Assembly (NCBI GenBank): GCA_043804895.1
Contig: JAZDIN010000003.1
Location: 1-59,814 of the forward strand
DNA length: 59,814 bases
From: Candidatus Altiarchaeota archaeon
Lineage (GTDB): Archaea > Altiarchaeota > Altiarchaeia > IMC4 > SCGC-AAA252-I15
Reading direction: 5' to 3'
Shown: in pieces, positions 3,244 to 47,985 of the stretch
Layout of the letters: every line of letters starts with the position of its first letter
Numbering within the stretch: position 1 is the first letter of the stretch
Notes under the pieces: model-generated
The model's input: the letters and a program-made list of their open reading frames with translations, nothing else
Told to the model about the DNA's origin: nothing
Database searches by the model: none
Made by a program: the position numbers and the translations under genes

Positions 3244-3563
3244 GTTGCACCTACCCCAACCATGTCAATCACATCCCCAGCGACCCGTATTATAATCAAC
3301 GCCATGATAGCGGCGATGCACATCCCCACAGCCTGTTTCCTCGCCGCGGGGTCGTCTGCGGTGTACACGTATTTGGCTGCTCCGTAGACGAACATGATGA
3401 CTGCGATGGAGTTGCCCATGATAGTGAACGAAGTCGTCAGCGAATTAACGAAGGCTATCATCTTAACCAAGTAGGTGGCTGCTGAGGTGGCGGATGAGAT
3501 AAAGTAAATCACCGCCACTGCACTCAACGTCGCCCGTCCCATTAAGAGTTTCCCCTGTTCCAT
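3240..3563 (-). CDS. VirB2/TrbC-like mini-pilin paralog 4 (Cys-less variant)
   Basis: 107 aa. Same helix-loop-helix layout with YGAAKYVYTADDPAARKQA. It is the only paralog lacking the N-proximal and C-terminal Cys pair. Confidence 0.6.
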   Translation of the reverse strand: MEQGKLLMGRATLSAVAVIYFISSATSAATYLVKMIAFVNSLTTSFTIMGNSIAVIMFVYGAAKYVYTADDPAARKQAVGMCIAAIMALIIIRVAGDVIDMVGVGAT

Positions 3564-13796: not shown

Positions 13797-13832
13797 ATAA
13801 TGTTCTTTATATCTTAGAATCACCAATATACT

Positions 13833-23197: not shown

Positions 23198-25129
23198 ATG
23201 GAGTTCAAGCTCGTCACTGATTTAAGGCCTTCCGGCAGCCAGCCTGAGGCTATAGAAAAGCTAGTGGGTGGCCTTAGGAAGGGGCTCAGGCATCAGACTC
23301 TCCTTGGAGTCACAGGCAGCGGTAAGACGTTCACTATGGCGAACGTCGTCGCCCAGGTCCGGAGGCCTACGTTGGTGTTGGCTCATAACAAGACGTTGGC
23401 TGCGCAGCTTTACAGCGAATTCAAGGAACTATTCCCTGAGAACGCTGTCGAATACTTCGTCAGCTACTACGACTACTACCAGCCTGAGGCGTACCTTCCT
23501 GCGACTGACACTTACATCGCGAAGGACGCTGACGTGAACGCTGAGATAGAGAAACTTAAGCACAGGGCGACATCCAGCCTCCTTGACCGGAGGGACGTTC
23601 TTGTGGTCGCGACTGTGTCCGCGATATACGGCCTTGGGAGTCCTGAGGAATACAGAAAGAGTACGCTGTACCTCAAGGTCGGGGACAAAATACCCCGGGA
23701 TGGGCTGATCCGCCTGCTAGTCGACAACCACTACGAGCGAAGCGGGAGCGCAATAGTTGAAGGACAGTTCAGGGTACGCGGCAGCCAGGTTGACGTATTC
23801 CCCCCGTACAGCGAGAGGATATACAGGATTAAGGCTGAAAAGAATATTGAGGGGATTAGGGAGATTGATGCGGTAACGAACAAGGTCACCAGCGAGCTTG
23901 ATGACATACGCATCTACCCTGCAGTCCACTACATCCTCCCTGAGGATATGAAGAAGACCGCATTGGGTTCGATTAGAACTGAGATGAGGCAGCGGCTGAA
24001 AGAGCTTGAGAAGTCGGAGAAGATGCTCGAAGCTAACAGACTGAAGCAGAGGACTGAATACGACCTGGAGTTGATTGAGGAGTTGGGTTACTGTAAGGGG
24101 ATTGAGAACTACAGCCGACACCTTGAGGGGAGGAAGCCTGGCGCGCCGCCTCACACCCTCCTTGACTTCTACCCTGACAACTGGCTTTGCTTCATAGACG
24201 AGTCACACATGACGGTACCTCAGATCAGGGGCATGCACAACGGAGACCGAAGCAGGAAGGAGACCCTCGTCTCATACGGGTTCAGGCTACCCTCAGCCTT
24301 GGACAACAGGCCGCTCACTTACGGCGAGTTTGAGTCGCACCTCAATCAGGTAATCTACGTGTCAGCCACGCCGGCTGAATACGAGCGGAAGAAATCAAGC
24401 CAGATAGCAGAGCAGATAATAAGGCCTACGGGCCTCGTCGACCCTGAGGTTGAGGTGAGGCCGGCAGTGAACCAGGTCGAGGATTTCATAAGGGAGGCTG
24501 GGTTGAGGGTTAAGGCAGGCCAGCGCACCCTAGCGACTACTCTGACTAAGAGGATGAGTGAGGAATTGGCGGAATACCTTCACAAGAAGGACTTTAAGGT
24601 GAAGTACCTACACAGCGAGATTGAGACTCTAGAGCGGGTGGACCTCCTGCGGGAACTGAGGCTCGGGGACATAGACGTCCTAGTCGGCGTCAACCTCCTG
24701 AGGGAGGGACTCGACCTGCCGGAGGTTTCGTTGGTTGCTGTCTTTGACGCCGACAAGGAAGGGTTCCTGCGCTCTGAGACGAGCCTGATACAGACTATCG
24801 GCAGGTGCAGCAGGAACGTGGACGGGAAGGTTATCCTTTATGCTGATAATATGACTGGCAGCATCGAATCCGCAGTCCGGGAGACGAAGCGGCGGAGGAA
24901 CATGCAGCTTCAATACAACAGGGAACATGACATAACCCCGAAGACGATAATGAAGAAGGTGCACGACCGCATCGTGGAGAAAAAGACAGAGGACATAAAT
25001 GTGGAAGTCTACGAGAAGATGCCTTTGGACGAGATAAAACGGTTGATGAAGGAGGCTGCGGAAAGGATGGACTTCGAGCAGGCGATTAAGCTGAGGGACA
25101 TGCTCAGGGGGATGGAAGATGGCGGCTGA
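23198..25129 (+). CDS. uvrB: Excinuclease ABC subunit B
   Basis: 643 aa. GVTGSGKTF Walker A, helicase motifs, C-terminal UVR domain ([11 protein letters not shown]). Confidence 0.95.
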
Positions 25130-27935
25130 GGAGATTTTCGTGAAGGGTGCGAGGGAGCACAACCTCAAGAACATCGACGTCAGAATACCCCGGGACAAGC
25201 TCGTAGTAATCACAGGACTCTCCGGGAGCGGGAAATCCTCGCTCGCATTCGACACACTATACGCAGAAGGGCAGAGAAGGTATGTCGAATCGTTGAGCGC
25301 TTATGCTAGACAGTTCCTCGGACTCATGGAGAAGCCTGACGTCGACTACATCGAAGGCCTCTCCCCTGCAGTGAGCATAGAGCAGAAGACGACGAGCAAG
25401 AATCCGAGAAGCACTGTCGGTACCGTGACTGAAGTATACGATTACGTGCGCCTGCTTTACGCGAGGATAGGCATCCCCCACTGCCCGAAGTGCGGGAAGA
25501 ACATCACCATACAGTCGAAGCACCAGATAACCGAGCAGATAATAAAGATGGGTGCCAAGAAGGCTCTGGTGATGTCGCCGGTAGTCCGCGACCGGAAGGG
25601 CGAGTACCACACCCAACTGAAGGAATTCTTCCAGGACGGATACACCGAAGCTGTGATAGACGGCAAAAGGGTCAGCATAGAAAACAACATAAGGCTCGGG
25701 AAATACTACAAGCATTCGATAAGCATCATAATAGACGAAGTCGACCTGAAGCCGGCCAACAGGCAGCGTATACTGGAAGACGTCGAGACTGCCCTCCAGC
25801 TTTCGAAAGGCCTCGTGGAGGTGGAATCATCAGGGAAGAAGACGATGTTCTCCCAGAGGCTCGGCTGCCCTGACTGCGGGATAAGCTTGGACGAGCTGCA
25901 GCCGAGGATGTTCAGCTTCAACAGCCCCCACGGCGCATGCCCGACATGCCAGGGTCTTGGAGTCAGGCTGGAACTGGACCCGGACCTGATAATGCCGGAC
26001 AAGGGGAAGACAGTCGACGGTGGCGCGGTCGCTGTTTGGGGGTCTGCCATAGACGCTTTCTACCGCCGTTCCTTCAAGATTGTCGCAGCCAACCTTGGAA
26101 TAGACGCCGAAAGGCCGCTTTCGGGGTGGAGCAAGGATGAGTTGAACGTGCTCCTCTTTGGCGCAGGGGATAAGCAGTTCCATTTCAAGCACATATCGCA
26201 TGACGGTGACGGGCGGTGGGAGTACAGGGGCACATGGGAGGGTGTAGTGCCTAACCTGACGAGGCGCCACCGCGAGACCAAGAGCGAAGGAATGAGGGAG
26301 TGGATACAAAGCTTCATGAGCACGATACCGTGCAACGAATGCAAGGGCAAGCGCCTGAAACCAGAGGTGCTGGCAGTAACAGTCGGCGGCAAGAACATAT
26401 CGGAACTGACTGAACTGTCCGTGAAAGACGCGATGAACTTCCTTAAAAAGATGAAGCTCAACGATCAGGAGAAACAAATCGGCAACCAGGTCCTCAAGGA
26501 GATAAACTCCAGGTTAACATTCATGCGCAACGTAGGCCTCGACTACCTCACACTCGACAGGCAGGCATCCACGCTCTCTGGGGGGGAAAGCCAGAGGATT
26601 AGGCTCGCCACACAGATAGGAAGCCAGCTGGTAGGAGTCATGTACATACTGGACGAGCCGTCCATCGGCCTCCACCAAAAGGACAACAAACGCCTCCTTG
26701 CAACCCTCAAAAGCCTCAGGGACCTCGGGAACACGGTCATCGTAGTCGAACACGACATGGAGATGATAAACTCAGCAGACCATATCATAGACCTCGGCCC
26801 CGGAGCCGGAGTCCAGGGCGGGCACCTCGTCGCAGAAGGAACCCCCAATGATGTGAGGAACAGCAGGAAGTCAGTCACAGGAAAGTACATGAGAGGAGAC
26901 CTGAAAATCAAGGTTCCCTCAGAGAGGCGGGCAGGCAACGGCATGGCACTCACACTATTCGGCGCGAAAGAACACAACCTCAAGGACGTAGACGCTAGAT
27001 TCCCTCTCGGGAAATTCATCTGCATATCCGGAGTATCAGGTTCTGGAAAAAGCACGCTCATAAACGAGACCCTCGCCAAAGCATTGACGAAGGCGCTGTA
27101 CAGCAGCAAGGAGAAGCCGGGCGCCTACAGGAAGATAGAAGGCCTAGTGAACATCGACAAGGTCGTCGTCATAGACCAATCTCCGATAGGCAGGACCCCG
27201 AGGAGCAACCCTGCCACATACACGGGGCTCTTCACGCCCATTAGGGAGCTTTACAGCCAGATTCACGAGTCGAGGGTGCGGGGGTACCAGCCGGGGAGGT
27301 TCAGCTTCAACGTGCCTGGAGGCAGGTGCGAGAAATGTCAGGGGGATGGGATACTCAAGATAGAGATGAACTTCCTCCCAGACATCTACATCCCCTGCAG
27401 CGAATGCGAAGGGAAAAGGTACACTCCGGAGACGCTTGAGATAAAATATAAGGGCCGGAGCATCGCAGACGTCCTGGACATGACAGTGGATGAGGCGCTA
27501 ATCTTCTTCGAGAAGATACCAAAGATACACCGTAAGCTGAAACTCCTCTCAGACGTCGGCCTCGGTTACATAAGGCTCGGCCAGCCCGCGACGACGCTCT
27601 CGGGCGGGGAGGCGCAGAGGGTGAAGCTCACGCTCGAGCTTTCGAAGACGAGCACAGGCAGGACGTTATACCTACTCGACGAGCCGACTACGGGATTGCA
27701 CAGCCACGACGTGAAGAAACTCCTGGAGGTGCTGAACCTCCTCGTCGACAAAGGGAACACAGTCGTTGTGATAGAACACAACCTCGACGTCCTAAAGACC
27801 GCAGACCACATCATAGACCTCGGCCCAGACGGTGGAGAAGACGGCGGATGGATAATAGCGGAGGGCACCCCTGAGGAGCTAACAAAAAACAAGAAAAGCT
27901 ACACAGGAGAATACCTGAAAAAGGTGCTTAACTGA
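25119..27935 (+). CDS. uvrA: Excinuclease ABC subunit A
   Basis: 938 aa. Two ABC modules ([23 protein letters not shown]; [10 protein letters not shown]), LSGGE signatures, zinc-finger Cys clusters. 11-nt overlap with uvrB. Confidence 0.95.
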
Positions 27936-27968
27936 CTATACTTATAGCCCTATTGGCCAGATACTATT

Positions 27969-28124
27969 ATGGCAAAGGATTTTAACGTTGTCATCGAAGA
28001 GGGAGAAGACGGTTACCTGATATCCGAAGTCGTTGAACTCCCAGGATGCCACACACAAGCCAAATCACTGGACGAACTCATGAAGAGGACTAAATGTGCT
28101 ATCTCTTTATATCTGAAACCCTGA
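27969..28124 (+). CDS. Orphan HicB-like (UPF0150) antitoxin-family protein, 51 aa
   Basis: Hand-translated: MAKDFNVVIEEGEDGYLISEVVELPGCHTQAKSLDELMKRTKCAISLYLKP*. Contains the UPF0150 core (EDG-Y-I-EV-LPGC). No hicA adjacent. Confidence 0.6.
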   Translation: MAKDFNVVIEEGEDGYLISEVVELPGCHTQAKSLDELMKRTKCAISLYLKP

Positions 28125-28134
28125 ATCTACCCTT

Positions 28135-29736
28135 ATGGATGACAGAATCAGTTCCTCAATAGGCAACGCCCCAAAGAAACCGGGAGTGTATCTCTGGAAG
28201 GGCGCGGGCGGCAGAATCCTCTACATCGGGAAGGCCGACAATCTGAGGGAGCGTTTGAGGAACTACCTCAACCCCCAGGACGTTAAGACGTTGAAGATGA
28301 TCGAAGCATCCGAGACTCTGGATACCATCACAACCAAGTCCGAGTCCGAGGCCTTGATTCTCGAGGACGCGTTGGTGAAGCAGAATCAACCGAGATACAA
28401 CGTCAGCTTACGCGACGACAAGAGATACCCCTATATCCGAGTCACAGTCGGTGAAGAATATCCTCGCATACAGGTGGCCAGGCGCGTGCAACTTGACGGC
28501 TCAAGGTATTTCGGCCCATACACTGATTCACCTTCCGTCAGGAGGGTTCTGAGGATGGTCGGCGAATATTTCGGGGTGCGGCAGTGCAACTACAACCTCA
28601 AAAAGGTGAAGCGGCCGTGCATCGACTACTCCATTGGAAAATGCTCCGCACCGTGTAAGATGATAGAGAAGGCGGAGTATGTGGGCCGCGTTGAACAGGC
28701 CTGCGGGTTCCTGTCAGGAGACCGGAAGGCGTTGGAATCCAGGCTGAAGGAGCAGATAAAATCCTTCACCCGCCGGATGGAGTATGAGAAGGCGATGAAA
28801 GTCCGCGACATACTCCTGTCCTTGAACTCCCTATCGCAGCGGCAGAACATCTCCTCAGCAAAGCTTAAGGACATGGACGTCCTCGGATACGGATTCCTCG
28901 GCAGGAAGGCTAACATCACACAACTTACGGTCCGGGGCCACGGGGTTGTGGCAGTCCTACATCACCCGCTGAAAGGAGAATACGCTGACAACCCAACTGA
29001 GTCGATGAAGGCGTTCATAAAACAGCATTACACCACTAAAGACCTCACGCCGAAACTGATTGTCACCTCAGCCAAACCAACAGACAGTGGGCTCCTCGAG
29101 TCAGCACTCTCTACAATCGCAGGGTCGAAGGTCTCCATCAACACAGCCACACGTGGCCAGAAGCGGAGGCTCTCTGAGATGGCTGTTGAAAACAGCATAC
29201 ACCAGCTGAGGCAGGAGGAGCTCAAAAGGCAAGTACCCAATCCTCTTGAACTCCTCAAAGAAGTATTCCGGATGCCTCACAATCCCCAAAGGATAGAATG
29301 CTACGACATCAGCAACCTAGGCCGAAAGAACACGGTCGGTGGAATGGTCGTGTTCACAGACGGCCGGCCTGACAAGAGCCAGTATAGGATGTTCTCCGTC
29401 AGGGGCGTAGGCCAGGATGACCCGAAAAACATGGCCGAGATGGTCGAGCGCAGGTTCACACACCTGGAATGGAAGACCCCTGACATGGTTGTCTTGGACG
29501 GTGGGAAGGCTCAGCTCACAGCGGCGCTGAAGCATGTCCCACACGGCGTGACCACAATTGCTATCGCAAAAAACCTTGAAGAGATTCACCTACCCAACCG
29601 GAAGCAGCCACTCAGATTGCAGCCGAACAACCCCGCCCTACACCTGCTACAGCAGGTTCGAGACGAAGCCCACAGGTTCGCGAGAAAATACCACGTGAAA
29701 AAGAGGAGTAAGGGCTTTTTTATCCCTCTGGATTAA
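28135..29736 (+). CDS. uvrC: Excinuclease ABC subunit C (short form lacking the C-terminal HhH2 domain)
   Basis: GIY-YIG N-terminus (GVYLWKGAGGRILYIGKADNLRERLRNY), UVR domain, EndoV-like domain. Ends ...RDEAHRFARKYHVKKRSKGFFIPLD, right where HhH2 normally begins. Confidence 0.9.
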   Translation: MDDRISSSIGNAPKKPGVYLWKGAGGRILYIGKADNLRERLRNYLNPQDVKTLKMIEASETLDTITTKSESEALILEDALVKQNQPRYNVSLRDDKRYPYIRVTVGEEYPRIQVARRVQLDGSRYFGPYTDSPSVRRVLRMVGEYFGVRQCNYNLKKVKRPCIDYSIGKCSAPCKMIEKAEYVGRVEQACGFLSGDRKALESRLKEQIKSFTRRMEYEKAMKVRDILLSLNSLSQRQNISSAKLKDMDVLGYGFLGRKANITQLTVRGHGVVAVLHHPLKGEYADNPTESMKAFIKQHYTTKDLTPKLIVTSAKPTDSGLLESALSTIAGSKVSINTATRGQKRRLSEMAVENSIHQLRQEELKRQVPNPLELLKEVFRMPHNPQRIECYDISNLGRKNTVGGMVVFTDGRPDKSQYRMFSVRGVGQDDPKNMAEMVERRFTHLEWKTPDMVVLDGGKAQLTAALKHVPHGVTTIAIAKNLEEIHLPNRKQPLRLQPNNPALHLLQQVRDEAHRFARKYHVKKRSKGFFIPLD

Positions 29737-35559: not shown

Positions 35560-36390
35560 CTATTGCATCGTGATGTTTAGAAGTTCCACTTGTTCAAACC
35601 CGCCCAAGGTCATATTCTCCCTGACTACGCCTATCCCAGGCGCATAATACTTTAATGTTACTTTACCTGGCTCTAGGGGCGTCCACTCTTCCGTTACAAG
35701 GCAGTTGCTGAATGAGCCATAGGGTGTTGTGACAGTCTCACCAACCTTGACCACTTTTGCATAGTCTTCTGCTTCACCCTTGTAATACTCCTGCTGATAT
35801 GTGTCGCCAACCATAGGGTTGACTCTCATGATAATCCCCTGTTTGGCGCCGTCCACTCCAGCCTCCCATGAGCCCTTTGTGCTTACTACTCTCCCATTTT
35901 TATACTCCTTGGAATCTTCACCGAAGTACCAGACGTTGCCTTCATTGTCCTGAGCATACCAGTCAAGGGTGTCCTCCTCGATTTTTCCGTTGAATTTGAC
36001 GGTATCCCTGACTACTGTGCAGGTCACGTTTAGTATCTCCTTTGTCTGATTGGTCACATAAGTCTCTATAACACCCTTACCGTCTTCAGTAACCTCAGAG
36101 TATATCATCTTTGTACCTGGTTTAAGTGGGAAGTAGGGGTTGTCTATTTTATCGACGAAGTTAGGCGTAATACCTGTCACGTGTGGTATGGTGGAGGATA
36201 CGGTTGATGCAACAACAGTTGTGGAAGGAATTGGAGGAACCGTGGTAAAACTTGTCGGCGTAGTCGTTGTTGAAGAGTCTGTTGTCACAACAGCGATTTC
36301 AGGTGTCGGAGGCGTAGAGGGAGTCTGTATGCAGCCGGATACTGCAAGCAGCATCAGAATCGAACCAATAAACAAACCGAGTTTCCGCAT
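35560..36390 (-). CDS. Secreted lipobox protein with Thr linker
   Basis: The ORF is open to 36435, but the ATG at 36390 (MRKLGLFIGSILMLLAVSGC) has GAGGGT upstream and a TATA-like ATATTTATTAA further up. Thr/Ser/Pro linker, then NPYFPLKPGTK... domain. Confidence 0.7.
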   Translation of the reverse strand: MRKLGLFIGSILMLLAVSGCIQTPSTPPTPEIAVVTTDSSTTTTPTSFTTVPPIPSTTVVASTVSSTIPHVTGITPNFVDKIDNPYFPLKPGTKMIYSEVTEDGKGVIETYVTNQTKEILNVTCTVVRDTVKFNGKIEEDTLDWYAQDNEGNVWYFGEDSKEYKNGRVVSTKGSWEAGVDGAKQGIIMRVNPMVGDTYQQEYYKGEAEDYAKVVKVGETVTTPYGSFSNCLVTEEWTPLEPGKVTLKYYAPGIGVVRENMTLGGFEQVELLNITMQ

Positions 36391-36480
36391 TTTTACCCTC
36401 TTATCTACGTCAGTTAATAAATATCGAGATTTCAACTGACAAGTTAATCTCTATCGGAGCTTGCATCCACCCTCGCGCGA

Positions 36481-36546
36481 GGGTGTTTTTGGCAAAGTAT
36501 ATAATGGGTGTTTTTTCTTGATTAATGTGGTTTTTCGGGTGTTTTT
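36481..36546 (+). repeat. Three direct copies of GGGTGTTTTT (36481, 36506, 36537), the first following hairpin CACCCTCG-CGAGGGTG
   Basis: Read directly. Spacing 25 and 31 nt. AAGTATATAAT TATA-like box sits between copies 1 and 2. Confidence 0.6.
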
Positions 36547-36551
36547 ATCGA

Positions 36552-36659
36552 GGGTTCAGCAGAGCCTTTATGCGGAGGATGTGGCTGAGAGCCGTCTGCT
36601 CTCAGACACACGCCAGAGACTACTGTCTCTGCCGTGTGAATGCCCCTAATGCTGAACCC
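36552..36659. ncRNA. Candidate structured RNA (three-way junction), function unknown
   Basis: A 10-bp closing stem GGGTTCAGCA/TGCTGAACCC encloses two hairpins. The first is CTGAGAGC-N5-GCTCTCAG (36585-36605). The second is a 13-bp stem with one mismatch, CACACGcCAGAGAC-TACT-GTCTCTGcCGTGTG (36607-38). No transcription evidence is available. Confidence 0.25.
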
Positions 36660-36665
36660 GAGAGG

Positions 36666-36691
36666 ATACCACAGCCTTCAGGCTGTGGTAT
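36666..36691. repeat. Perfect hairpin ATACCACAGCC-TTCA-GGCTGTGGTAT (family member 2)
   Basis: 11-bp stem read directly. Shares the GGATA..CCACAGCC left flank with member 1. Confidence 0.8.
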
Positions 36692-36706
36692 TTATTGCCA
36701 GTTGGC

Positions 36707-36738: not shown

Positions 36739-37194
36739 ATGGCTCGAAAGAACACTAAGGAATCGGTCGAAGAGAAGGTTGAGGAACAGGATGATGATGT
36801 TAAGAAGCCAGAACCGGCCGCTCCAGCGCAGCCTACAGCAGCCTCTGAGGAGGAGTTCACTCCTGAGGATGAATCCCGCTACGCGTTCCCGATGGCCCCC
36901 ATCGTTCGCCTGATAAAGCAGGAGATGGACGAGGATAAGATGATAAGGCGGCGCGTGAAGGAGGGCATGAACGAGTGGCTTGAGAGCCTCTGCCGCAAGG
37001 TCGCGAAGAAGATGAACCAGAGCGAATACACTATGGTGGAAATCGACGACTTCAAGACCGCAATCGAAGCCTATGAGATGGTAGACCACGTGGAACAGGA
37101 ACGCCAGAGGATAGTGGCCACCCTAGAAAAGATTAAACAAGACTGCGACTCGCTGATAATGGACGTGAACAGGAAATTCATATCCCCCGAATAG
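36739..37194 (+). CDS. Histone-fold protein with acidic/Pro-Ala N-terminal tail and C-terminal helical extension
   Basis: The core FPMAPIVRLIKQEMDEDKMIRRRVKEGMNEWLESLCRKVAKKMNQSEYTMVEIDDFKTAI aligns by eye to archaeal histone HMf (LPIAPIGRIIK...RKTIKAEDIELAV). The 49-aa tail is MARKNTKESVEEKVEEQDDDVKKPEPAAPAQPTAAS... Confidence 0.5.
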   Translation: MARKNTKESVEEKVEEQDDDVKKPEPAAPAQPTAASEEEFTPEDESRYAFPMAPIVRLIKQEMDEDKMIRRRVKEGMNEWLESLCRKVAKKMNQSEYTMVEIDDFKTAIEAYEMVDHVEQERQRIVATLEKIKQDCDSLIMDVNRKFISPE

Positions 37195-37477
37195 CCGGGG
37201 ATTCTTTCTCCCACCACTGGTACATCCTGGGAGTTATGTGGTATACTATAACTGCCAGGGCTATCCCTGCTATGACATCGATGAAGTAGTGCCTCCTCAG
37301 ATATACCGTGGAGACCCAGGACAGGACTATCAGCGGAGCTAACGCATACCCCCACTTCCTTGAAAACTTAAGGGCGTATAACAACACCAGAAGCGATAGG
37401 GCGACGTGCACGCTTGGGAACCTTAGAACTATACATTGGATATTGTCATGCTGGTTGAGGGAATTTGAACTCACCAT
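37178..37477 (-). CDS. PAP2_C-like mini membrane enzyme (sphingomyelin/IPC-synthase-type C-terminal half)
   Basis: 99 aa, 3 TM helices. FPSVHVA (like SGH) and RRHYFIDVIAGIALAVIVYH (like HYxxDVxxxxxxxxxxxYH). Lacks the first KxxxxxxRP motif. Its ATG overlaps the giant gene stop (ATGGTGA). Confidence 0.55.
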   Translation of the reverse strand: MVSSNSLNQHDNIQCIVLRFPSVHVALSLLVLLYALKFSRKWGYALAPLIVLSWVSTVYLRRHYFIDVIAGIALAVIVYHITPRMYQWWEKESPAIRGI

Positions 37478-40400
37478 AGGTGTCTTCCGCTATCGATTTG
37501 CTGTCTTTTCTTTTTTTCACCCTCCTCCGTATCATCATACATCATCATCTCTAATAACACTCTATGTGCCTGCCTAAGCCCATTGGATCTTGTTGGCCCA
37601 ACAAACCCTTTCATGGCCGTCGTTTTAGCATCATCTAAAAACTGTTCTGCTTTACTCTCGTCCCCTCCTTTTGCATACTGTTTTATTAGCCTGCTTGCAC
37701 CTAATTTGACTGCCACGCCTATATCATCATATGTGGGCTTCTCTTCAGCTTTTGTTCTCTCCATCTCGTCTCTCATCCTGTTTATCACCACTTGTCTGCT
37801 CTTCCTGAACACGACATAGACTCCGTTCACCACCTTTGCCCACCAACTGTTGGCTTCTATCTTGTCGCGTAGGCTTGCCATGTCGTACAAGTCCTCTGCG
37901 GGTGTCTGATCCGTGTTTGTTGGTTCGTAGACTGCGATTTTCCCTGCCTTACCGAACAAGCCTGCCTTTAGTAGTGCTTCTTCCTTGAGTGCGGCTGCTC
38001 TAATCAGTATGCGTCTTTCTGGTTCAACTTCCACATATCCTGTCATCGAAGGCGGGCTTGGGAGGTAGCCTTTGATTTGGAATTTCTGCATCTCATTCTC
38101 CCTCTGTATGAGATCATCTAAGGCTTCAGCTGCTGGGATGTAGAACTTTTGGGCTGCTTCGCGTGTGCGGTACCATGGTAGGGTCTCCTTGAGGAATTCA
38201 AACCAGGAGGTATCTCCTAGTTTTATATACGCCGTGCCTTTGAGGTAATCAGCCCTTTTGTGGTTGTACCATCCTAAATATGGGTCGTCGTATTCTCTCT
38301 GGCTTTCCACGTACTCCCCATCTTCAGCCCAACGCGCGGCATTATCCCTCCTGTCCGCCAGCATCACCACACCTAGGGTTGCTACTGAGATTGGTAGGCC
38401 TACGGCAGCCAGCAACCCTACGAAGGGAACCCCAGCTGCAGCCAACCCTCCTGCTACTATGGAGGCTCCTACCCCCCCTCTAGTCCAGTCAAGGAATCTC
38501 TTCCTGCTTCCGTTTTTGACGCTGGCTATCCTTGATTCCTCGTTCAGGTCTAACATCGTGTTTGCTATGCCTAACATCGCCAGGCCGTCACCATCCTCCC
38601 TCATCTGGTCCATACTTGCTGTGTACTTTCGGTATCCTCCGTAGCCCCAGCCGAACCTGTGGAAGAGATACTCCTCAAATCTTTCGAATCTTATGGGTGG
38701 CCATTCGAACCCTCTCCAGACGTCCTTCCACTCTTTTGGTTTTTCTGATGTCATATACTCTGGGTTCTCTCCGATTGAGGCTATTAGGGCTGCATAATAG
38801 TGCTTTTGTGCTTTGTACAACCTCTCCTTCCTCTTCTCCCTATCCGTTTGTGATTCTGCAATAGCTACGTTCGTCCTGGCTATCGCCCTGGCTGTGAAGA
38901 CTCTAGGGTCCATCTCAGACGTCCGTTCTTCCCCGAATGGGATAAGTTTCTTGGCCTCGCCGTAGGCCTTGATGAACTTGGTTTCCGCGCCGTCTTTACC
39001 CTCAAGATTGCCCTGGTATTCGCATATGAGGCCGTCCACGAAGTTCATCATGAACGCCTCCATCTCTATTCTCTTCTCCTTTCCCCATTCCTCTGAATCT
39101 GGGGAAAACCTCCCTACTCCATAGCGTCTGGCAGTCAGGCGTAATGCCGCATCCCTTGTCGAAGCCAGTTTGGCTATCATGGAGTCCATATCATCCTGAT
39201 TGTATGTGCCTTCTACTGAATACATCCTGTGTATCTCGTATTCCTCGGAGTCTTGGAGTTTGTTGCTTCTGAGTATCTTCCCCACTTCTGCAGCGTCGTA
39301 GTTTCCGCTATTCCTCATCTCCATCAGCTGCTTGTGTGCTGTCTGGTATCTGGCTGTGGCCAGGATGAATTCACGGGCGTATGCGTTCTCCATGATGTGC
39401 ATTATGGCTTTTGTGTAGTCCGGATTCTTGGAGGTTATCTCAACGCCAGGCCATATGACTGTCTCTTCTCTGGCGCCGACCTCCCCCTTCGTTAGTTCCC
39501 TGAGACTTATGGTCCCGTTTTCTATCCCGGTTGTGATTGTACTGTACGTTGTATCCTTGGTTATGAGGGGCCCGCTAGTGTCCTCGTTCAGAGCCTTCCG
39601 GACTGCCTCCTCGCGCATCCTCATCTGGTTGTTGACGCTCGTATCGACTGATACGAAGAACGCGCACATCTGATCTACGAATTCTCTCTTCTGTACTTCT
39701 GTGAATGGGCCTTCCCTAACCTCATGGTGGTTCCCTATCCTCCTCAAGTCTGCAGTATCTCCGCTGGCAGGTTTGAATGGCTTGTCGCCGAATAATGCTT
39801 CATACATTTGCGTCTTCAAGTCCTTCCAGTCCTTGTTTGCTGTCGCCCACCCGTCTTTTGCCGAGCCCCAGTTTGTATACAGTTCCTCCTTTGATACGTC
39901 ATAGGGGTTATCTTTCATGTAATGCTGACGTATATTCTTAAATTGCGGGCTGAACATTCTGAGTATCTGTAAGGCTCTCTTCCTCCCCTCCTCGTCCTCC
40001 AATCCTATCGGTGTCGCCTCTAATGCCGACACCTTTATGGCCTTAATCACTTTGGCTGGGTGGTAGGTGAAGCCGACAGTCTTTAGTTCAAGACTACTTG
40101 CCTCCCCTTCTCTGAACTCATCGTCGACCATGGTGCGGATAACTTCTGACGAACTCTGTTCTATGTTCAGAACAGTGTATACTAATGTCTCAATCAGCGG
40201 GGATTTCTCATCTGTGTATGCTCCTATCTTCTTGAGTATCTCCTTTACCCCTTTTTGGTCTTTGATAGCGTCAACTTTTTTCTTCACCTGCACTTTGAAT
40301 GTGGCGTCTTCTGCTTCTGGGCTGGCTATGAAGTTGTACCCCGTGGAGTTTATCACAGCCTGCCATATATCTTGTTTCTCCTCCTCGGTCAGGTGGAGGA

Positions 40401-43400
40401 TGGCGTCTGCGTAAAGCCTTATCCTCCCCTCCTCCCTTCTGCGGTCATCTTCAGTCTGGCTTTTCTCCCAGTGAACTTTAAGTTTCCTTTCCTTGTCGTC
40501 CCTCAGCATCAGCGTCTCGTAGCCTAGGATGTTGTTTCCTATGTAGTTTCCTGCATATACCCCACTCTGCTCCTCCAACTGCGTTTCTGTGAGGGCGTTC
40601 CTCCATCTGAGTCTCATGTCAGGGTCGTCGGACAGATAAGATGCTCTTAAAACTATTTGCATGTATATCATGACACCCTCTCGTTCGTCTGCCATTAGCT
40701 TGCTTTTCGCCAGCCTAAGCATTAGGCTGTGTCTGTCTAGGTCTGTCTTCTTCATGACCTCTTCGGTAACGTCCTCTCTCCGTATGCTGCTTGCGTCTGT
40801 TATCTCTTCCTCTTTTGCCCTACCTTTGTTCACTGCATCCAAAACCCCCTTAACAGTCTTGGCTGCCATTATGGTGCCCCTTGCGTCTAATCCCAGCTCA
40901 TTCAGCGCACCTTCTGTGAGGTCTGTTTTATCTATCTCATCTGCACTACCAAGCATAAAAAGTTCTTTTTTCTCCTCATCGGAACCTTTGGTCTTCTCCC
41001 TCCGGTGTCTGTTCACAGCATACAGGGCTCTCTTCTTGAACTCCTCATCGCCTGACTTGATTTTGTCCAGGACAAGCTTTACTATCCTGTCCTCTAGTTT
41101 CTCATGGTCTAACAGTAGTTCCTTCAGCATGTCTGCAGTGAGGAACCTTTCTTCTATCTTGTCTGCGCTTTTGACTTCCCTATCTTTGTTCACCGCTTCA
41201 AGGGCTTTTTTTCTGAATTCCTCGTCGCCTGACTTGATTTTATCTAATATGGATTTTTTGTCTAACAGTAAGTCCTTCAGCACACCTGTGGTGAGGTACT
41301 CCTCTTTTATCGAGTCTGCGCTTTCGATTTTCCTATCTTCGTTCACCTCTTCAAGGACTTTCTTATTGAACTCACTGTCGCCAGACTTGATCTTCTCTAT
41401 TATGAACTTCTTCTGGTCATCTTCTTTTGCGTCTATTATTGCGAGCTCATCTAGGTTGTATGTTGTTCCTTCGCCAATTATGTCCAGCGTTCTCCTCACT
41501 AACCCGTTTGTTCCTCTGATTTTGCTGAGCGCTACGTCTGCTCTCACTGCTTGTGTGTCTGCTAGGACTTCGTCTGTCATATCGTCCTCTATTATCTGGC
41601 TGACGCGCGCAAGGTTCTCCCCGTTGTACCTACTTCTGGCTTTGGTTTTCCTGTTCACAGCCCCTAACAGGGCTTTTGAAAGCTTTTCGTCATATAGGCG
41701 GGCCTCTAATTCGCTGCGGCTTACGCCCGCCGCGTTGGCTACATCCAGCTTCAGTGCCCCGTACTCGTCCCTTATATCGTCGTCGGTAATCTGTTCAAGG
41801 TTTTTCAGTTGCGGAAGCCTACCCCTCCCCATGTTCAATACTCTGAGCAAGTTCCTCCTCTGCCCCTCATATAGCAGTTCTATCTCAGAAATCCTTGGAG
41901 TCCCGAGCAACACCTCTGTTTCTGCGTCATCCAAAACGTCGGCTATGCGGATGCCCCCATTGTACTGCGTGTAGCCTTCTATGTACTGGTCCCCGCTTTT
42001 CCTTAGCTGCCCCATCAGGTTCACGAGCATGCTAGGTACGCCCTGCGGTTGGAAGTCCTTCATCTCCTCATCTCTTATGCGGTCGCCATAGTTGAGTACG
42101 CGTGCATATAGGGGGTCGCATCCTTGCTCTATTATGATTTTGTTCCCTAACCTGTCGAATAGGGCACGATTCAACTCGAAGAGGTGCCCTGACACAGTGT
42201 CCATGTCAAACTCTCTTGGTATCAGGTCTCTTGAAGTGTTTACCATCTCGTGGGCGAGCCACCTTATTATGGCCCATTTATCCATCCTAGAACCAGGACC
42301 TTGGCTGTTTGGCCTGCCGTATTTATCCAAGGAATCCTGAAAGTCATGTACCCTCCTTATACGATACGGCTCCACTAATTTCTTGTCGCTAGTCTGTATC
42401 TCAGGGACTGCTGTTCCGTGGAATCTCCTCCACCAGTGGTCATATATGTCAGTGAACAGTATGAACGGGTTGTGGTACGGTGTTTCCTTGCCTGTTGTCA
42501 TAAAGTGTTCATGGTGACTGAATGATACCTGGTATGCGAATTCACCTAGAACTGCCATGAAACTATCCTGAACCTTATCACCCTTTACTATTGCAGTGCC
42601 CTCCTCTCCGAGCTTTCCTATAACGTAATCTCTACTAAGACGTACTTCATTACCCCCCTGTACGAGAGCCTTGAAAATGCTTTTCCTCTTTTCTTTGTCT
42701 GCCTCAACAGGGAAGCTGATAGTGTTATCTAAGACTTTCTGCATAGTATTATTCGCTATATCCGCGTCTATGAGGCCACGTTCTTTTAATTTCTTAATCC
42801 CCTGAAGCTGTTCCTCCCTTGTTGCTCCTGTTTCACCTGCAAGGAAGTTTACAATCTCCCTGGACAGAAAGCTTTTGAGTTGATCTGACTGGGCTCGCCT
42901 TTTTGAGCTTCCATTCTCATTAAACGCTTGCATTATCTGTAACGCGGTATTAACGTTGAATTCAAGGTTCGTGCCCTTCTTCTTAGCTCTTTTTATCATG
43001 ACTCCATCTTGGCGTAATGTGAGCCTTAGAACGCTTTCGGCAGTCTCGCCCTCGAACAGGGTCAACTTACTTAAGTCTACGACATGGCCGAGTATGCTTT
43101 CTACAACCCCTGTGACTTTTCTGACGTCAACTTTAGAAATCTCCTCCCCTCGTCTTTCCCCCTGTCCTCCACCTTGGATGTAGCCTTCCTGCATCCTTAT
43201 GGTCTCGAACATCCCCCTAATCGCTTGTACAAAAGACATCATCCCACCTTTATGTTCTGCCCCCTTTATGTCACAGATTAACGTGGGTTCGCCGGTTCCT
43301 ACTAACTTTCTTGTTTTAGGGTCTAATGATGGTTTCTTTACTACGTACTCAGTCTCTACCTTACCGTCCTCCTCCTCAAATTCAACCTTCTCGACTTTCA

Positions 43401-43875
43401 CTACTGGCGGCGTGAGTATCTCCTCGACGGCACCAATTTTGCGGCCAAATCGGTATGTCACAAGCTCTCGACTTGTGAAATCATACTCCTGTTCCGGCTC
43501 TTCACGTGCTCCTAAATCAACGCCCGGCCTTACAGTGCCTATGGGCATGCCTATCGATTCGCCTAATACTCTTCTAATATTGCGTCTGGTGATATCCTCA
43601 TCTTCAGCGTCTTCAATAGTTATCCCTGCAGTTTTAAGATTGTCGTATTCTCTCATCAACGCTTCTACTGCTTTGTCCTTGTCTTTCTCATCTATCCTTT
43701 TACTGCTCTCTGTCAAAGAGAATAAACCAAACACCTCTTTCTTCAGGTCCGCTTCGTCCTTACTTCCCTTCCTCCCAGCTTTGAACTTCTTTAGTAATAG
43801 GCCAATCAGAGTCTCTAGGTCGTCTGAGTTTATCCCTGCTACCTTATCCTTTTCTTCTGGTGGTTTTCCGGACAT
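37471..43875 (-). CDS. Orphan giant protein (2134 aa), Lys/Glu-rich, with a two-helix membrane hairpin near the C-terminus
   Basis: Uninterrupted 6.4-kb ORF with no signal peptide. Hydrophobic hairpin GGVGASIVAGGLAAAGVPFVGLLAAVGLPISVATLGVVMLA (about nt 38355-38485). Three tandem 51-59-aa repeats. No catalytic motif recognised. Confidence 0.85.
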   Translation of the reverse strand: MSGKPPEEKDKVAGINSDDLETLIGLLLKKFKAGRKGSKDEADLKKEVFGLFSLTESSKRIDEKDKDKAVEALMREYDNLKTAGITIEDAEDEDITRRNIRRVLGESIGMPIGTVRPGVDLGAREEPEQEYDFTSRELVTYRFGRKIGAVEEILTPPVVKVEKVEFEEEDGKVETEYVVKKPSLDPKTRKLVGTGEPTLICDIKGAEHKGGMMSFVQAIRGMFETIRMQEGYIQGGGQGERRGEEISKVDVRKVTGVVESILGHVVDLSKLTLFEGETAESVLRLTLRQDGVMIKRAKKKGTNLEFNVNTALQIMQAFNENGSSKRRAQSDQLKSFLSREIVNFLAGETGATREEQLQGIKKLKERGLIDADIANNTMQKVLDNTISFPVEADKEKRKSIFKALVQGGNEVRLSRDYVIGKLGEEGTAIVKGDKVQDSFMAVLGEFAYQVSFSHHEHFMTTGKETPYHNPFILFTDIYDHWWRRFHGTAVPEIQTSDKKLVEPYRIRRVHDFQDSLDKYGRPNSQGPGSRMDKWAIIRWLAHEMVNTSRDLIPREFDMDTVSGHLFELNRALFDRLGNKIIIEQGCDPLYARVLNYGDRIRDEEMKDFQPQGVPSMLVNLMGQLRKSGDQYIEGYTQYNGGIRIADVLDDAETEVLLGTPRISEIELLYEGQRRNLLRVLNMGRGRLPQLKNLEQITDDDIRDEYGALKLDVANAAGVSRSELEARLYDEKLSKALLGAVNRKTKARSRYNGENLARVSQIIEDDMTDEVLADTQAVRADVALSKIRGTNGLVRRTLDIIGEGTTYNLDELAIIDAKEDDQKKFIIEKIKSGDSEFNKKVLEEVNEDRKIESADSIKEEYLTTGVLKDLLLDKKSILDKIKSGDEEFRKKALEAVNKDREVKSADKIEERFLTADMLKELLLDHEKLEDRIVKLVLDKIKSGDEEFKKRALYAVNRHRREKTKGSDEEKKELFMLGSADEIDKTDLTEGALNELGLDARGTIMAAKTVKGVLDAVNKGRAKEEEITDASSIRREDVTEEVMKKTDLDRHSLMLRLAKSKLMADEREGVMIYMQIVLRASYLSDDPDMRLRWRNALTETQLEEQSGVYAGNYIGNNILGYETLMLRDDKERKLKVHWEKSQTEDDRRREEGRIRLYADAILHLTEEEKQDIWQAVINSTGYNFIASPEAEDATFKVQVKKKVDAIKDQKGVKEILKKIGAYTDEKSPLIETLVYTVLNIEQSSSEVIRTMVDDEFREGEASSLELKTVGFTYHPAKVIKAIKVSALEATPIGLEDEEGRKRALQILRMFSPQFKNIRQHYMKDNPYDVSKEELYTNWGSAKDGWATANKDWKDLKTQMYEALFGDKPFKPASGDTADLRRIGNHHEVREGPFTEVQKREFVDQMCAFFVSVDTSVNNQMRMREEAVRKALNEDTSGPLITKDTTYSTITTGIENGTISLRELTKGEVGAREETVIWPGVEITSKNPDYTKAIMHIMENAYAREFILATARYQTAHKQLMEMRNSGNYDAAEVGKILRSNKLQDSEEYEIHRMYSVEGTYNQDDMDSMIAKLASTRDAALRLTARRYGVGRFSPDSEEWGKEKRIEMEAFMMNFVDGLICEYQGNLEGKDGAETKFIKAYGEAKKLIPFGEERTSEMDPRVFTARAIARTNVAIAESQTDREKRKERLYKAQKHYYAALIASIGENPEYMTSEKPKEWKDVWRGFEWPPIRFERFEEYLFHRFGWGYGGYRKYTASMDQMREDGDGLAMLGIANTMLDLNEESRIASVKNGSRKRFLDWTRGGVGASIVAGGLAAAGVPFVGLLAAVGLPISVATLGVVMLADRRDNAARWAEDGEYVESQREYDDPYLGWYNHKRADYLKGTAYIKLGDTSWFEFLKETLPWYRTREAAQKFYIPAAEALDDLIQRENEMQKFQIKGYLPSPPSMTGYVEVEPERRILIRAAALKEEALLKAGLFGKAGKIAVYEPTNTDQTPAEDLYDMASLRDKIEANSWWAKVVNGVYVVFRKSRQVVINRMRDEMERTKAEEKPTYDDIGVAVKLGASRLIKQYAKGGDESKAEQFLDDAKTTAMKGFVGPTRSNGLRQAHRVLLEMMMYDDTEEGEKKKRQQIDSGRHLW
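40990..41394 (-). repeat. Three in-frame tandem repeats inside the giant gene
   Basis: KIKSGD[SE]EF[NRK]KK[VA]LE[EA]VN[EK]DR[KE][IV][EK]SAD[SK]I[KE]E.[YF]LT...LK[DE]LLLD repeated with 51- and 59-aa periods. The DNA repeat ...TCGCC[TA]GACTTGAT[TC]TT... is visible at about 41045, 41225 and 41380. Confidence 0.75.
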
Positions 43876-44038
43876 TTTTCTCCCTGTTTGTTATTACCTG
43901 TTGTTTTTTTGCTTATATACTTGTGTTTTAGGGTTGTGGGCTGGTTCTTTGGGGTTTTTTGGCACAATCTAAAAATCATGTTAAACATTGTTCAAGCACT
44001 CTTCTTGTATTTTAACCTTACCACACTATTCTCCTACC

Positions 44039-44461
44039 ATGGATTACAACAGATACGACTACGACCGCCTCCTGGAGCGGGTCTGGGCCGGCCTCCCTGA
44101 GAAGCTGAAGAAGCACGACAGGTTCGAGGTACCTGAGGCCGACGCCTTCATAGAAGGCAACGTCACCATAATCCGCAACTTCAACGACATCGCACTCAAA
44201 TTCAACCGCGGGGGAGACCACATACTCAAGTTCCTATCCAAGGAACTGGCAGCGCCAGGGACGATTGACGGGTCAAGGGCCATAGTCCAAAGGAAGCTGA
44301 AGAAGCAGGTGGTGGACGAGAAGATTAAGGCCTACGCGAGCGAATTCGTCATATGCCACGAGTGCGGGAGGCCAGACACTAAGTTGAGCGAGCTGGAGGG
44401 GCAGAAGGTGTACAAGTGCGAGGCCTGCGGGGCATGGTGGCCGATGCGCAGGATAAAATAG
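44039..44461 (+). CDS. eif2b: Translation initiation factor aIF2 beta subunit
   Basis: 140 aa. C-terminal zinc ribbon CHECGRPDT...CEACG. The track ORF starts at 43988, but MDYNRYDYDRLL at 44039 matches homologs. Confidence 0.9.
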   Translation: MDYNRYDYDRLLERVWAGLPEKLKKHDRFEVPEADAFIEGNVTIIRNFNDIALKFNRGGDHILKFLSKELAAPGTIDGSRAIVQRKLKKQVVDEKIKAYASEFVICHECGRPDTKLSELEGQKVYKCEACGAWWPMRRIK

Positions 44462-47207: not shown

Positions 47208-47873
47208 CTATCTACCTGTATTCTCTCCAGGTGCCTGCTCAGGTGGGTAGTCAAATCTTTTCAATATTCTTTCCACCCTTGCCAAATCTTTACGGTTAGC
47301 ATCACTGCGAAACAACGGTAGGTGAGTCATGGCGCTGTTAAGGCCGTTCAGTAGACTCCTCTTCCATATCTCCGGGTCCATACCAGTTAGGTACTCTAAA
47401 TTCCTGATATTTTTCGTATCGAGTGATTCTACCACATCATATATCTCCTCATTTATAGAACTGTCTCCAGTCAAATCAGATGTTTTAGCAACTCCAAATT
47501 CAAGGGACCTTCCGAGGCCTAAGAAACCCGTTCTACGACTTCTGATGAAAACGACGGTGTTAGGTCTGTCCTCGCCAATTGAAAACTTAGGTTCGCCTCC
47601 AGCATATTCCACTTCGGTCGCGCTTCCAGATTCTGGAGGACTTGTTGGGGCTTGGGTGGATAATGCTATGGGAATCCACTCAGACTTGTACACTGTCAAA
47701 GCTGGGTCTGCTAGTACGGAAGCCATAGTATTCACTGTAGGAACCCTGCAGAATCTATCTATCACTTTAGCGCGGGCACTCATATCCTTCACCGCGCCCC
47801 CTATTTGGGATAGCGCGTTGTCTAAATCTCCCGTATCCAATAAATCTGAATTCCTATCCTGTCTTTGCACCAT
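47208..47873 (-). CDS. Hypothetical protein (221 aa), second gene of an orphan two-gene module
   Basis: The track ORF starts at 47903, but the ATG at 47873 has GGAGGG 9-10 nt upstream and abuts the stop of a small upstream ORF (TAAAATG). No motif recognised. Confidence 0.55.
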   Translation of the reverse strand: MVQRQDRNSDLLDTGDLDNALSQIGGAVKDMSARAKVIDRFCRVPTVNTMASVLADPALTVYKSEWIPIALSTQAPTSPPESGSATEVEYAGGEPKFSIGEDRPNTVVFIRSRRTGFLGLGRSLEFGVAKTSDLTGDSSINEEIYDVVESLDTKNIRNLEYLTGMDPEIWKRSLLNGLNSAMTHLPLFRSDANRKDLARVERILKRFDYPPEQAPGENTGR

Positions 47874-47874
47874 T

Positions 47875-47985
47875 TTAAGCGTCCCTCCTTCTAATCTCCT
47901 CATCTAACATCTTTGCAAAGCGTCTGATAGCGTCATCCATCTCCTTATCCAATTCAGTGCCAGTCTTCCGAGCTGGGTTGTCCAT
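47875..47985 (-). CDS. Possible 36-aa helical charged peptide, first gene of the module
   Basis: MDNPARKTGTELDKEMDDAIRRFAKMLDEEIRRRDA*, read by hand. Confidence 0.3.
   Translation of the reverse strand: MDNPARKTGTELDKEMDDAIRRFAKMLDEEIRRRDA

Follow-up and report, generated by a model that had tools for sequence, protein, structure and literature searches.

Does the giant gene of this locus form a functional unit with the small enzyme-like reading frame that follows it, or does it belong to a gene family with a different partner? The locus lies in a 59,814-nt stretch of chromosomal Candidatus Altiarchaeota DNA (the window), where the stop codon of a gene for a 2134-aa protein (the giant) overlaps the start of a 99-aa open reading frame (ORF) related to PAP2-type lipid-phosphate enzymes. 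The first-pass annotation, made from the window sequence alone, had presented the pair as a two-gene module in which a membrane-inserted scaffold is coupled to a lipid-phosphate mini-enzyme. Comparison with related loci favored another answer: the giant probably represents a membrane-tethered protein family found only in Altiarchaeota, whose usual partner has been replaced in this genome by a truncated PAP2 fragment, and the pair is not a conserved module.

The giant coding sequence occupies positions 37471–43875 on the minus strand, on the evidence of the ORF, its translation and its homologs, and the uninterrupted 6.4-kb frame that had been described is present. A TATA-box-like element, TATATAAG (43912–43919, minus strand), lies 37–44 nt 5′ of the ATG and is a candidate archaeal promoter of the gene, and a Shine-Dalgarno-like GGGAG (43880–43884, minus strand) is located 4 nt 5′ of the ATG. 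Several genes internal to operons of the window are likewise preceded by motifs of the GGAGG or GGTGA type. The protein is highly charged (E 10.2%, K 8.4%, D 7.3%, R 7.3%), in agreement with its earlier description as Lys/Glu/Asp-rich. In the window copy the N-terminus is hydrophilic and a signal peptide is absent, as had been stated; a motif scan of this copy found neither Walker A nor HExxH, the two motifs that had been described as missing, and no CxxC; Pfam and the motif scan together found no nuclease, NTPase or protease motif. Neither the single sequence nor the family profile gave a significant match to Pfam, NCBIfam, PHROGs, PADLOC or PDB sequences, and a whole-family profile and four conserved-block profiles searched against PDB gave E-values of 0.04 or worse throughout. 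Remote homology to a known family, which had been named in advance as a finding that would speak against the proposal, was looked for and not found, and no described system with the proposed architecture was found here either.

The giant had been called an orphan, a term that stands for its annotation, in which no family was matched, but not for its homology, since seven related loci were identified. A word-indexed search of 5.8 billion proteins with the giant or with a three-member alignment recovered nothing except the protein of the window itself and missed relatives that exist. These were recovered by exhaustive HMMER searching and by tblastn on syntenic loci; a direct scan of contigs with the giant gave nothing, and the use of aIF2-beta as an anchor succeeded. 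The aIF2-beta genes closest to the window copy are in Altiarchaeota MAGs. Only five other representatives of the giant were present among 1.84 billion proteins read exhaustively with HMMER, and 15 billion predicted proteins contained no relative outside the family. With the window included, the family comprises eight loci (the others being L001, L003 and L022–L026). Its defining features are homology that runs collinearly through the C-terminal ~1100 aa, a conserved Gly/Ala-rich hairpin flanked by basic residues, and a location between the aIF2-beta and histone-fold genes; the window giant shows all three. Members are 1566–2134 aa long, all-alpha and rich in charged residues, and between lineages the collinear homologs are 21–39% identical. 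No giant was found near aIF2-beta in the 10–20 kb examined of each of L002 and L004–L007, and more members may exist than were sampled.

Where the flanks are visible, the giant is divergent to the genes for aIF2-beta, DUF424, EgsA and GGGP synthase (GGGPS) and convergent with a histone-fold gene. The corresponding anchors in the window, both identified by Pfam, are an aIF2-beta gene (43988–44461, plus strand), after which DUF424, EgsA and GGGP synthase follow, and a histone-fold gene (CBFD_NFYB_HMF; 36739–37194, plus strand). The latter is 72–78% identical to the copies in L001, L022, L023 and L024 and shares 17 nt at its 3′ end with the 99-aa ORF. The aIF2-beta synteny is common to L001, L003, L022, L023 and L024, and the giant occupies the same chromosomal position in the six loci with visible aIF2-beta. 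The distance from the giant's stop codon to the histone gene is 276 nt in the window versus ~720–2160 nt in the relatives. An integrase gene lies two genes past the giant in L024.

In all seven other loci, the gene after the giant is co-directional and encodes a fast-evolving single-pass (bitopic) membrane protein, located 4–7 nt 3′ of the giant where both gene calls exist. This partner consists of an N-terminal tail of ~40 aa, one transmembrane (TM) helix and a hypervariable C-terminal domain, and its homology across lineages is weak. The C-terminal domain is TPR/BamD-like in two cases, one scoring above the YfiO cut-off (L025) and the other giving sub-threshold TPR matches (L024). The positive-inside rule would place the N-terminus of the partner inside and its C-terminal domain outside. 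No bitopic partner follows the giant in the window, nor was a partner homolog found elsewhere in it. The ORF at 35560–36435 (minus strand) was considered as a relocated partner and was rejected as an unrelated secreted or lipoprotein-like protein.

The partner slot of the window holds the 99-aa ORF instead (37178–37477, minus strand). The reported stop/start overlap ATGGTGA is present at 37471–37477 (minus strand), and the ORF contains the three hydrophobic segments that had been ascribed to it; Pfam and alignment with AUR1, the catalytic subunit of fungal IPC synthase, identified it as the C-terminal half (~3 TM helices) of a PAP2_3/IPC-synthase-type domain. PAP2_3 (PF14378) was matched with 48.5 bits (cut-off 27) at positions 116–188 of 190 only, and PAP2 (PF01569) with 39.6 bits (cut-off 27.2) at positions 50–128 of 130 only. 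The earlier label PAP2_C-like was therefore correct for the superfamily, but PAP2_C itself (PF14360) fell below its cut-off (20 bits vs 27, E = 0.001) and PAP2_3 is the better label. The NCBIfam model NF052609, phosphoinositol dihydroceramide synthase, gave 32.7 bits against a cut-off of 480, at positions 218–282 of 305 only.

The best solved match of the ORF was residues 243–314 of the 401 residues of AUR1, and the predicted IPC/sphingomyelin-synthase-type motifs were borne out by the alignment: FPSVH (H24) and RRHYFID (H63, D67) correspond to the AUR1 catalytic triad His255/His294/Asp298 (PMC12122681). The catalytic cavity of AUR1 and SMSr needs six helices (PMC12122681). In the AUR1 core these are TM3–TM8, and AUR1 also requires Kei1. 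The ORF resembles AUR1 and SMS/SMSr in its FPSxH and HYFxD motifs but differs from them in its archaeal host and in retaining only about the last three helices of the six-helix core. The complete core is not present, and the description as a mini-enzyme could not be upheld for half of a catalytic core, which is without precedent in that role. A stop codon lies four codons 5′ of the ATG. A split PAP2 gene was considered and rejected, as the N-terminal half was found neither in any other frame nor elsewhere in the window. The closest relatives of the ORF, at 39–57% identity, are PAP2_3 genes that are fragmentary or were called only in part, and two come from bacteria; one relative, P0005, is a gene fragment too and lies on a bacterial contig in which split genes abound.

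Several features would nevertheless suit a functional module, in which the giant serves as a scaffold and works together with a lipid-phosphate enzyme to remodel membranes or scavenge lipids, or a variant of it in which this lineage has recruited the half-PAP2 as a new membrane partner. The ORF shows no decay, being intact with all three catalytic residues, three hydrophobic helices and an ATG that overlaps the giant's stop, and it sits exactly in the slot of the usual membrane partner. GC3 is 0.55 in the giant and 0.61 in the 99-aa ORF versus 0.63–0.76 in the flanking genes of the window, so that the A+T richness attributed to the operon holds at synonymous sites. From its sequence, the ORF could be translated and used. 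The module is nonetheless unlikely, in either form. A PAP2 gene stands beside the giant in none of the seven other loci, which have the bitopic gene there, and the juxtaposition is unique to the window genome; only a weak GGAAG is found upstream of the ATG; about three of the six helices that form the AUR1/SMSr catalytic cavity are represented; and the closest relatives are themselves fragmentary. Lipid-phosphate enzyme activity of the ORF alone is, on these sequence grounds, unlikely. The first-pass annotation had itself held that a PAP2 ORF not conserved next to homologs would count against the module; that is the situation found here, and the module is therefore unsupported. Most likely, the 99-aa ORF is a truncated remnant that would have been left after gene replacement in a hypervariable slot. 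As a remnant in the partner slot, it makes the juxtaposition of giant and PAP2 a lineage-specific one and not a conserved functional module. The reading of the locus as scaffold plus lipid enzyme rests on a gene fragment in one genome and should stay out of annotation.

The giant, by contrast with this fragment, is a real gene under purifying selection, and its family is small, unannotated and confined to Altiarchaeota. Disruption of the ORF in relatives, which had also been named beforehand as contrary evidence, was not observed: the ORF is intact in most of them, and a single in-frame TAG occurs in L025 only. Between L001 and L022, dN/dS was 0.22 for the giant and 0.07–0.22 for its neighbors; within the giant, constrained blocks had omega values of 0.05–0.14 and the centre had values of 0.4–0.7. 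The giants are 21–39% identical where the flanking aIF2-beta and EgsA reach 67–81%. Such divergence, the elevated omega of the centre, the hypervariable C-terminal domains of the partner and the missing giant at the L002 locus would all be expected if giant and partner formed an arms-race locus, in virus defence or in surface or host contact, that diverges by diversifying selection and not as a loosely constrained scaffold. An arms race is improbable here. Omega exceeded 1 in no analysis window, no PADLOC or other defence-domain match was obtained, the nuclease, NTPase and protease motifs sought were not found, the absence of a signal peptide and the basic flanks of the hairpin predict a cytoplasmic location for the bulk of the protein, and the locus has a fixed position amid housekeeping genes and not in a defence island.

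A membrane association of the giant is predicted from a single hydrophobic segment, a Gly/Ala-rich hairpin with basic flanks at residues 1800–1840 (38356–38478, minus strand), which was recognized by hydropathy and family conservation. The uncharged run spans residues 1800–1840 and the hydropathy window residues 1800–1842, with a maximum of 2.3. The first-pass annotation had described a single pair of hydrophobic helices about 400 residues from the C-terminus; the single pair was confirmed, but the distance was wrong, the hairpin starting 335 aa and ending 294 aa before the C-terminus. In the family the hairpin usually lies ~290–300 aa before the C-terminus. In all members the uncharged run is 30–48 residues long, has an A-P-[F/I] turn at its centre and is bordered by K/R on either side, and the hairpin is a family-wide membrane anchor. 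Because a signal peptide is missing from the window copy and the hairpin is basic on both flanks, the bulk of the giant is predicted to be cytoplasmic. Both large domains would thus most plausibly be on the cytoplasmic side, which agrees with the same-side placement originally proposed.

In mitofusin/Fzo1, atlastin/Sey1 and bacterial dynamin-like proteins, a TM hairpin separates a large N-domain from a C-domain, both of them cytosolic. The giant resembles them, by analogy only, in its predicted topology and hairpin anchor, and helical bundles on either side of the hairpin appeared in an AF2 model (pLDDT 49), as might be expected of a membrane-remodelling or fusion protein of this kind. That the giant is such a protein is highly improbable: the window copy contains no P-loop/G1 motif ([AG]xxxxGK[ST]), no dynamin or GTPase Pfam match was obtained in the nine members scanned, and the giant has no GTPase domain and neither sequence nor fold similarity to these proteins, the fold being judged from the weak model. 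This model, of the C-terminal 1134 aa from a six-row alignment, was almost wholly helical, with a mean pLDDT of 49 and a pTM of 0.32; AF2 run from the giant's single sequence gave a pLDDT of 35.5. Foldseek with the C-terminal 1134 aa found nothing in PDB or BFVD at an E-value of 0.001 or better, an absence that is uninformative with a model this weak.

Two other kinds of protein invite comparison. Chlamydial Inc proteins, which are small bacterial type III secretion substrates, possess a bilobed hydrophobic hairpin of ~40 residues. By analogy, the giant appears similar to these in its ~40-residue hydrophobic segment, central turn and same-side termini, but it is an archaeal protein of more than 200 kDa, and its surroundings in the window include no secretion system. 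Like phage tape-measure proteins, the giant is very long, all-alpha and charged with Gly/Ala-rich hydrophobic segments; it differs from them in having no PHROG match, no tail or capsid neighbors, no relatives in viral contigs or phage records, and BFVD matches with TM below 0.1. It is hardly credible that the cassette is of mobile or viral origin, whether as the tape-measure-like protein of a provirus now degraded or as an allele that arrived from another lineage: the GC3 offset of the window copy (unlike the giants of L001, L022, L024 and L003, which match their own flanks), the L024 integrase and the tail/tape-measure proteins that head the BFVD matches point in that direction, as does the rank of the window copy as the most divergent member, but those matches lack significance (E ≥ 0.03, TM < 0.1; model pLDDT 49), plasmid records like the viral and phage ones held no relative, and the chromosomal position is shared by the six loci with no other virus-like genes adjacent. 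Xenologous replacement was also considered as an explanation for the divergence of the window giant and was rejected, as the identity matrices from which that divergence was read show fast divergence family-wide. Replacement by a foreign giant allele is kept as a possibility and not a conclusion because only the GC3 offset still favors it; import from another Altiarchaeote is possible and would leave the identity of the gene unchanged.

Under the preferred reading, that of an Altiarchaeota giant family with a replaced partner, the giant would be a cytoplasmic scaffold tethered by its hairpin to the cytoplasmic membrane. By pairing with the bitopic partner inside the membrane, it would connect a large platform in the cytoplasm to an extracytoplasmic domain, and the central repeat array may act as a variable spacer. 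This scaffold/linker mechanism as a whole, drawn from topology, operon structure and composition, is tentative and of low confidence. Few archaea possess two membranes, and Altiarchaeota belong to these. The giant, at 170–240 kDa, is conserved, single-copy at its locus, under purifying selection, tethered to the membrane and provided with a dedicated membrane partner, and this makes it a concrete candidate for a component that organises the envelope or acts in a cytoskeleton-like way. A bolder version is conceivable but unlikely: giant and bitopic TPR-bearing partner would form a new trans-membrane scaffold of double-membraned Altiarchaeota, a cytoskeletal or envelope-organising linker from cytoplasm to envelope with a repeat spacer of variable length, and the half-PAP2 swapped in for the partner here would actually be used, possibly rebuilding a lipid-binding site with the giant's hairpin. 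The word new as applied to the giant refers to its having no detectable relative, not to a demonstrated new mechanism.

The hamus protein of Ca. Altiarchaeum hamiconexum is an extracellular protein of 1808 aa with S_Layer_N, NosD and FKBP_C domains (PMC4975002). It is, like the giant, a very large, lineage-specific protein of Altiarchaeales, and it is tied to the unusual cell envelope; the giant differs in having none of these three domains and in its predicted cytoplasmic location.

The putative spacer lies in the centre of the giant, where block-wise hhalign pointed to an array of ~45–50-aa helical modules with the motif L..VN..R...I...D.T at residues ~664–1055 (40711–41886, minus strand). 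Matches ranked by E-value clustered in these residues at E about 1e-3 per pair, and the predicted module series is as yet weakly supported. No other part of the giant family evolves as fast or differs as much in length as the array, whose copy number varies; residues ~796–997 of the window giant have no counterpart in L003. The three tandem 51–59-aa repeats reported earlier are real in TRF and at the protein level, but the array is wider than three copies and extends over residues ~664–1055. They correspond to a recent tandem duplication with a 153-nt period at 41107–41404 (TRF score 384, 1.9 copies, 79% matches), of which a third, degenerate copy was seen at the protein level.

The conserved unit at this locus is an Altiarchaeota-specific operon in which a hairpin-tethered, all-alpha and presumably cytoplasmic giant protein is encoded together with a bitopic membrane partner. 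The first-pass annotation had instead proposed a functional two-gene module of the 2134-aa giant (37471-43875, minus strand) and a PAP2-like mini-enzyme encoded by a 99-aa ORF (37178-37477, minus strand). This module was not supported, because the pairing is restricted to the genome of the window. The description of the two reading frames themselves was borne out with minor corrections. The ATG of the 99-aa ORF overlaps the TGA of the giant ORF in the shared sequence ATGGTGA. As reported, the N-terminus of the giant was hydrophilic without a signal peptide, and no Walker A, HExxH or CxxC motif was found. Its composition was likewise Lys/Glu/Asp-rich, with charged residues making up ~33% of the protein (E 10.2%, K 8.4%, D 7.3%, R 7.3%). 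The three tandem repeats were recovered as a duplication of 153-nt period at 41107-41404 and a third, degenerate copy at the protein level. Exactly one strongly hydrophobic segment was present (residues 1800-1842). It begins 335 aa before the C-terminus and runs to 294 aa before it, closer than the ~400 aa first described. A TATA-like TATATAAG located 37-44 nt upstream of the giant ATG and a GGGAG 4 nt upstream of it are plausible candidate expression signals.

The giant had been taken for an orphan. A word-indexed search of 5.8 billion proteins with the giant as query returned only the window's own protein. Related loci were fetched by their aIF2-beta gene as anchor and searched by tblastn, which identified collinear homologs, ~25% identical, of 1977 aa in L001 and 1731 aa in L003; both lie upstream of aIF2-beta and on the strand opposite to it. 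A metagenome scan added the homolog of L022 (2019 aa), the sister locus of L001, and exhaustive HMMER analysis of 1.84 billion representatives, with the C-terminal 1200 aa of the giant as query, added five other proteins (P0006-P0010), whose contigs (L023-L026) showed the matching neighbourhood wherever sequence sufficed. Homologs were thus present at seven other loci. By the family HMM, giants were confined to eight loci including the window, and none was detected in L002 or L004-L007, which are more distant or rearranged Altiarchaeota loci. No member was matched by Pfam, NCBIfam, PHROG or PADLOC models or by PDB sequences, whether single sequences, the whole-family profile or four conserved-block profiles were used; no remote homology to a known family was found. 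Viral contigs and the phage and plasmid records likewise yielded no relatives. In L025, a single in-frame TAG (3341-3343) splits the homolog into products of 1015 aa and 956 aa in the same frame, which could be explained by a sequencing error, by pseudogene status or by read-through of the stop codon.

In all giants the hydrophobic segment was uncharged and 30-48 residues long, with an A-P-[F/I] turn at its centre, and each flanking stretch of 15 residues held 2-5 basic ones. The positive-inside rule, together with the hydrophilic N-terminus and the lack of a signal peptide, makes a cytoplasmic location most plausible for both the ~1800-aa N-terminal and the ~300-aa C-terminal domain, and the earlier placement of both flanks on this side was reasonable. 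The shortest segments (30-36 residues) may dip into the membrane as re-entrant hairpins without crossing it completely. The alignment-based AF2 model of the giant was almost wholly helical but of low confidence (mean pLDDT 49), reaching pLDDT 70-85 only at residues ~1440-1640, and the absence of significant Foldseek matches to this model consequently carries no information.

No PAP2 gene was found in any of the seven other giant loci (0/7). In 7/7, the slot held by the 99-aa ORF in the window was occupied by a co-directional gene for the membrane-protein partner, directly downstream of the giant and, in the five loci where both genes were called, 4-7 nt from its end. The partners measured 233, 233, 287, 638 and 703 aa, with two more copies cut by contig ends. 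Each had a hydrophilic N-terminal tail of ~35-45 aa, a single Gly/Ala-rich TM helix and then a C-terminal part that varied greatly, and the N-termini were loosely alike in layout. The flank preceding the helix was more basic than the flank after it, which suggests an N-in, C-out orientation. The L025 partner scored above the YfiO/BamD-like TPR cut-off and the TPR matches of the L024 partner were sub-threshold. The dN/dS of the partner was 0.23 in the L001/L022 pair. No partner homolog was found in the window. The giant/partner operon, which lacks detectable relatives elsewhere, is of real, moderate interest. In a tentative working model, the giant would act as a scaffold tethered to the membrane and would be linked via the bitopic partner to the extracytoplasmic compartment.

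The 99-aa ORF scored above the PAP2_3 and PAP2 cut-offs and below that of PAP2_C, the type to which it had been likened. Both matches covered the C-terminal part only (positions 116-188 of 190 in PAP2_3 and 50-128 of 130 in PAP2). The best solved relative was AUR1, the catalytic subunit of IPC synthase (residues 243-314 of 401), with H24, H63 and D67 aligned with AUR1 His255, His294 and Asp298. A stop lies four codons upstream of the ATG in the same reading frame, and the missing PAP2 half was not encoded in other frames or elsewhere in the window. The closest database relatives were PAP2_3 genes present as fragments or called in part (39-57% identity), two of them bacterial. The partner slot between the giant and the convergent histone-fold gene is clearly variable; the giant stop is 276 nt from the histone-fold gene in the window, compared with ~720-2160 nt at the related loci. 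Read most simply, the 99-aa ORF is a half-gene left by gene replacement and truncation, with a chance start at the giant stop. It could also be a co-opted small membrane protein, since the reading frame shows no internal decay. Stand-alone lipid-phosphate catalysis is unlikely: the catalytic cavity of AUR1 and SMSr is built of six helices, TM3-TM8 in AUR1 (PMC12122681), whereas the 99-aa ORF would supply about three.

The dN/dS of the giant was 0.22 between sister loci L001 and L022, compared with 0.07-0.22 for neighbouring genes. Constraint was uneven in this pair, with low-omega blocks (0.05-0.14) that included the hairpin region and a central region at 0.4-0.7. This centre matches an array, weakly supported, of ~45-50-aa helical modules (window residues ~664-1055), and the tandem repeats in the window giant are a local expansion of the array. 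The giants were 21-39% identical across lineages with 67-81% identity in aIF2-beta and EgsA, the window copy being the most divergent (21-24%). The claim that the operon is A+T-richer than its surroundings held at synonymous sites, where GC3 was 0.55 in the giant and 0.61 in the 99-aa ORF vs 0.63-0.76 in flanking genes. Giant GC3 matched that of the flanks in L001, L022, L024 and L003, and was below it only in the window (by ~0.13) and, mildly, in L023. For the window giant, the low GC3 hints at a cassette imported from another lineage or at a different codon pressure.

The operon lies among archaeal housekeeping genes. On one side are aIF2-beta, DUF424, G1P dehydrogenase (EgsA), GGGP synthase and a GATase, and among 185,579 species genomes the nearest aIF2-beta genes were those of Candidatus Altiarchaeota MAGs (76-81% identity). 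On the other side is the histone-fold gene (36739-37194, plus strand; 151 aa with a long charged N-terminal tail), which shares 17 nt at its 3' end with the 99-aa ORF. It was always convergent to the giant operon (window, L001, L022, L023 and L024), and its product was 72-78% identical to the homologs of these four loci (93% between L001 and L022). Two genes past the giant operon, L024 carries a phage-type integrase gene (13393-14694, plus strand), and variable or mobile DNA may adjoin the giant locus in some genomes. Two low-GC3 ORFs in the window without a confident Pfam domain, 35560-36435 (0.49) and 47208-47903 (0.43), both on the minus strand, may be accessory genes or recent acquisitions; in the former, a signal-peptide/lipobox-like N-terminus is accompanied by a Thr/Ser/Pro-rich linker.

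Farther out, the window encodes UvrABC, an M3 peptidase, AglB/STT3, sugar-nucleotide enzymes and threonine synthase. The UvrB-UvrA-UvrC set (23198-29736, plus strand) is complete and of bacterial type in this archaeal genome. A second giant ORF (16899-21599, minus strand; 1566 aa), unrelated to the 2134-aa giant, had no Pfam match and matched NCBIfam NF033662, acidic double-disulfide repeat-containing protein (E = 9e-28, five stretches). Searches of the window for tRNA genes and Rfam families returned none. In the intergenic stretch that separates ORF 35560-36435 from the histone-fold gene, the sequence 36530-36700 was predicted to fold into strongly structured nested hairpins (MFE -80.8 kcal/mol; z = -7.8 on the plus and -7.6 on the minus strand). 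This element had no Rfam match even at E <= 1 and no blastn match in the related loci; it could be an unannotated structured RNA or a terminator/regulatory cluster.
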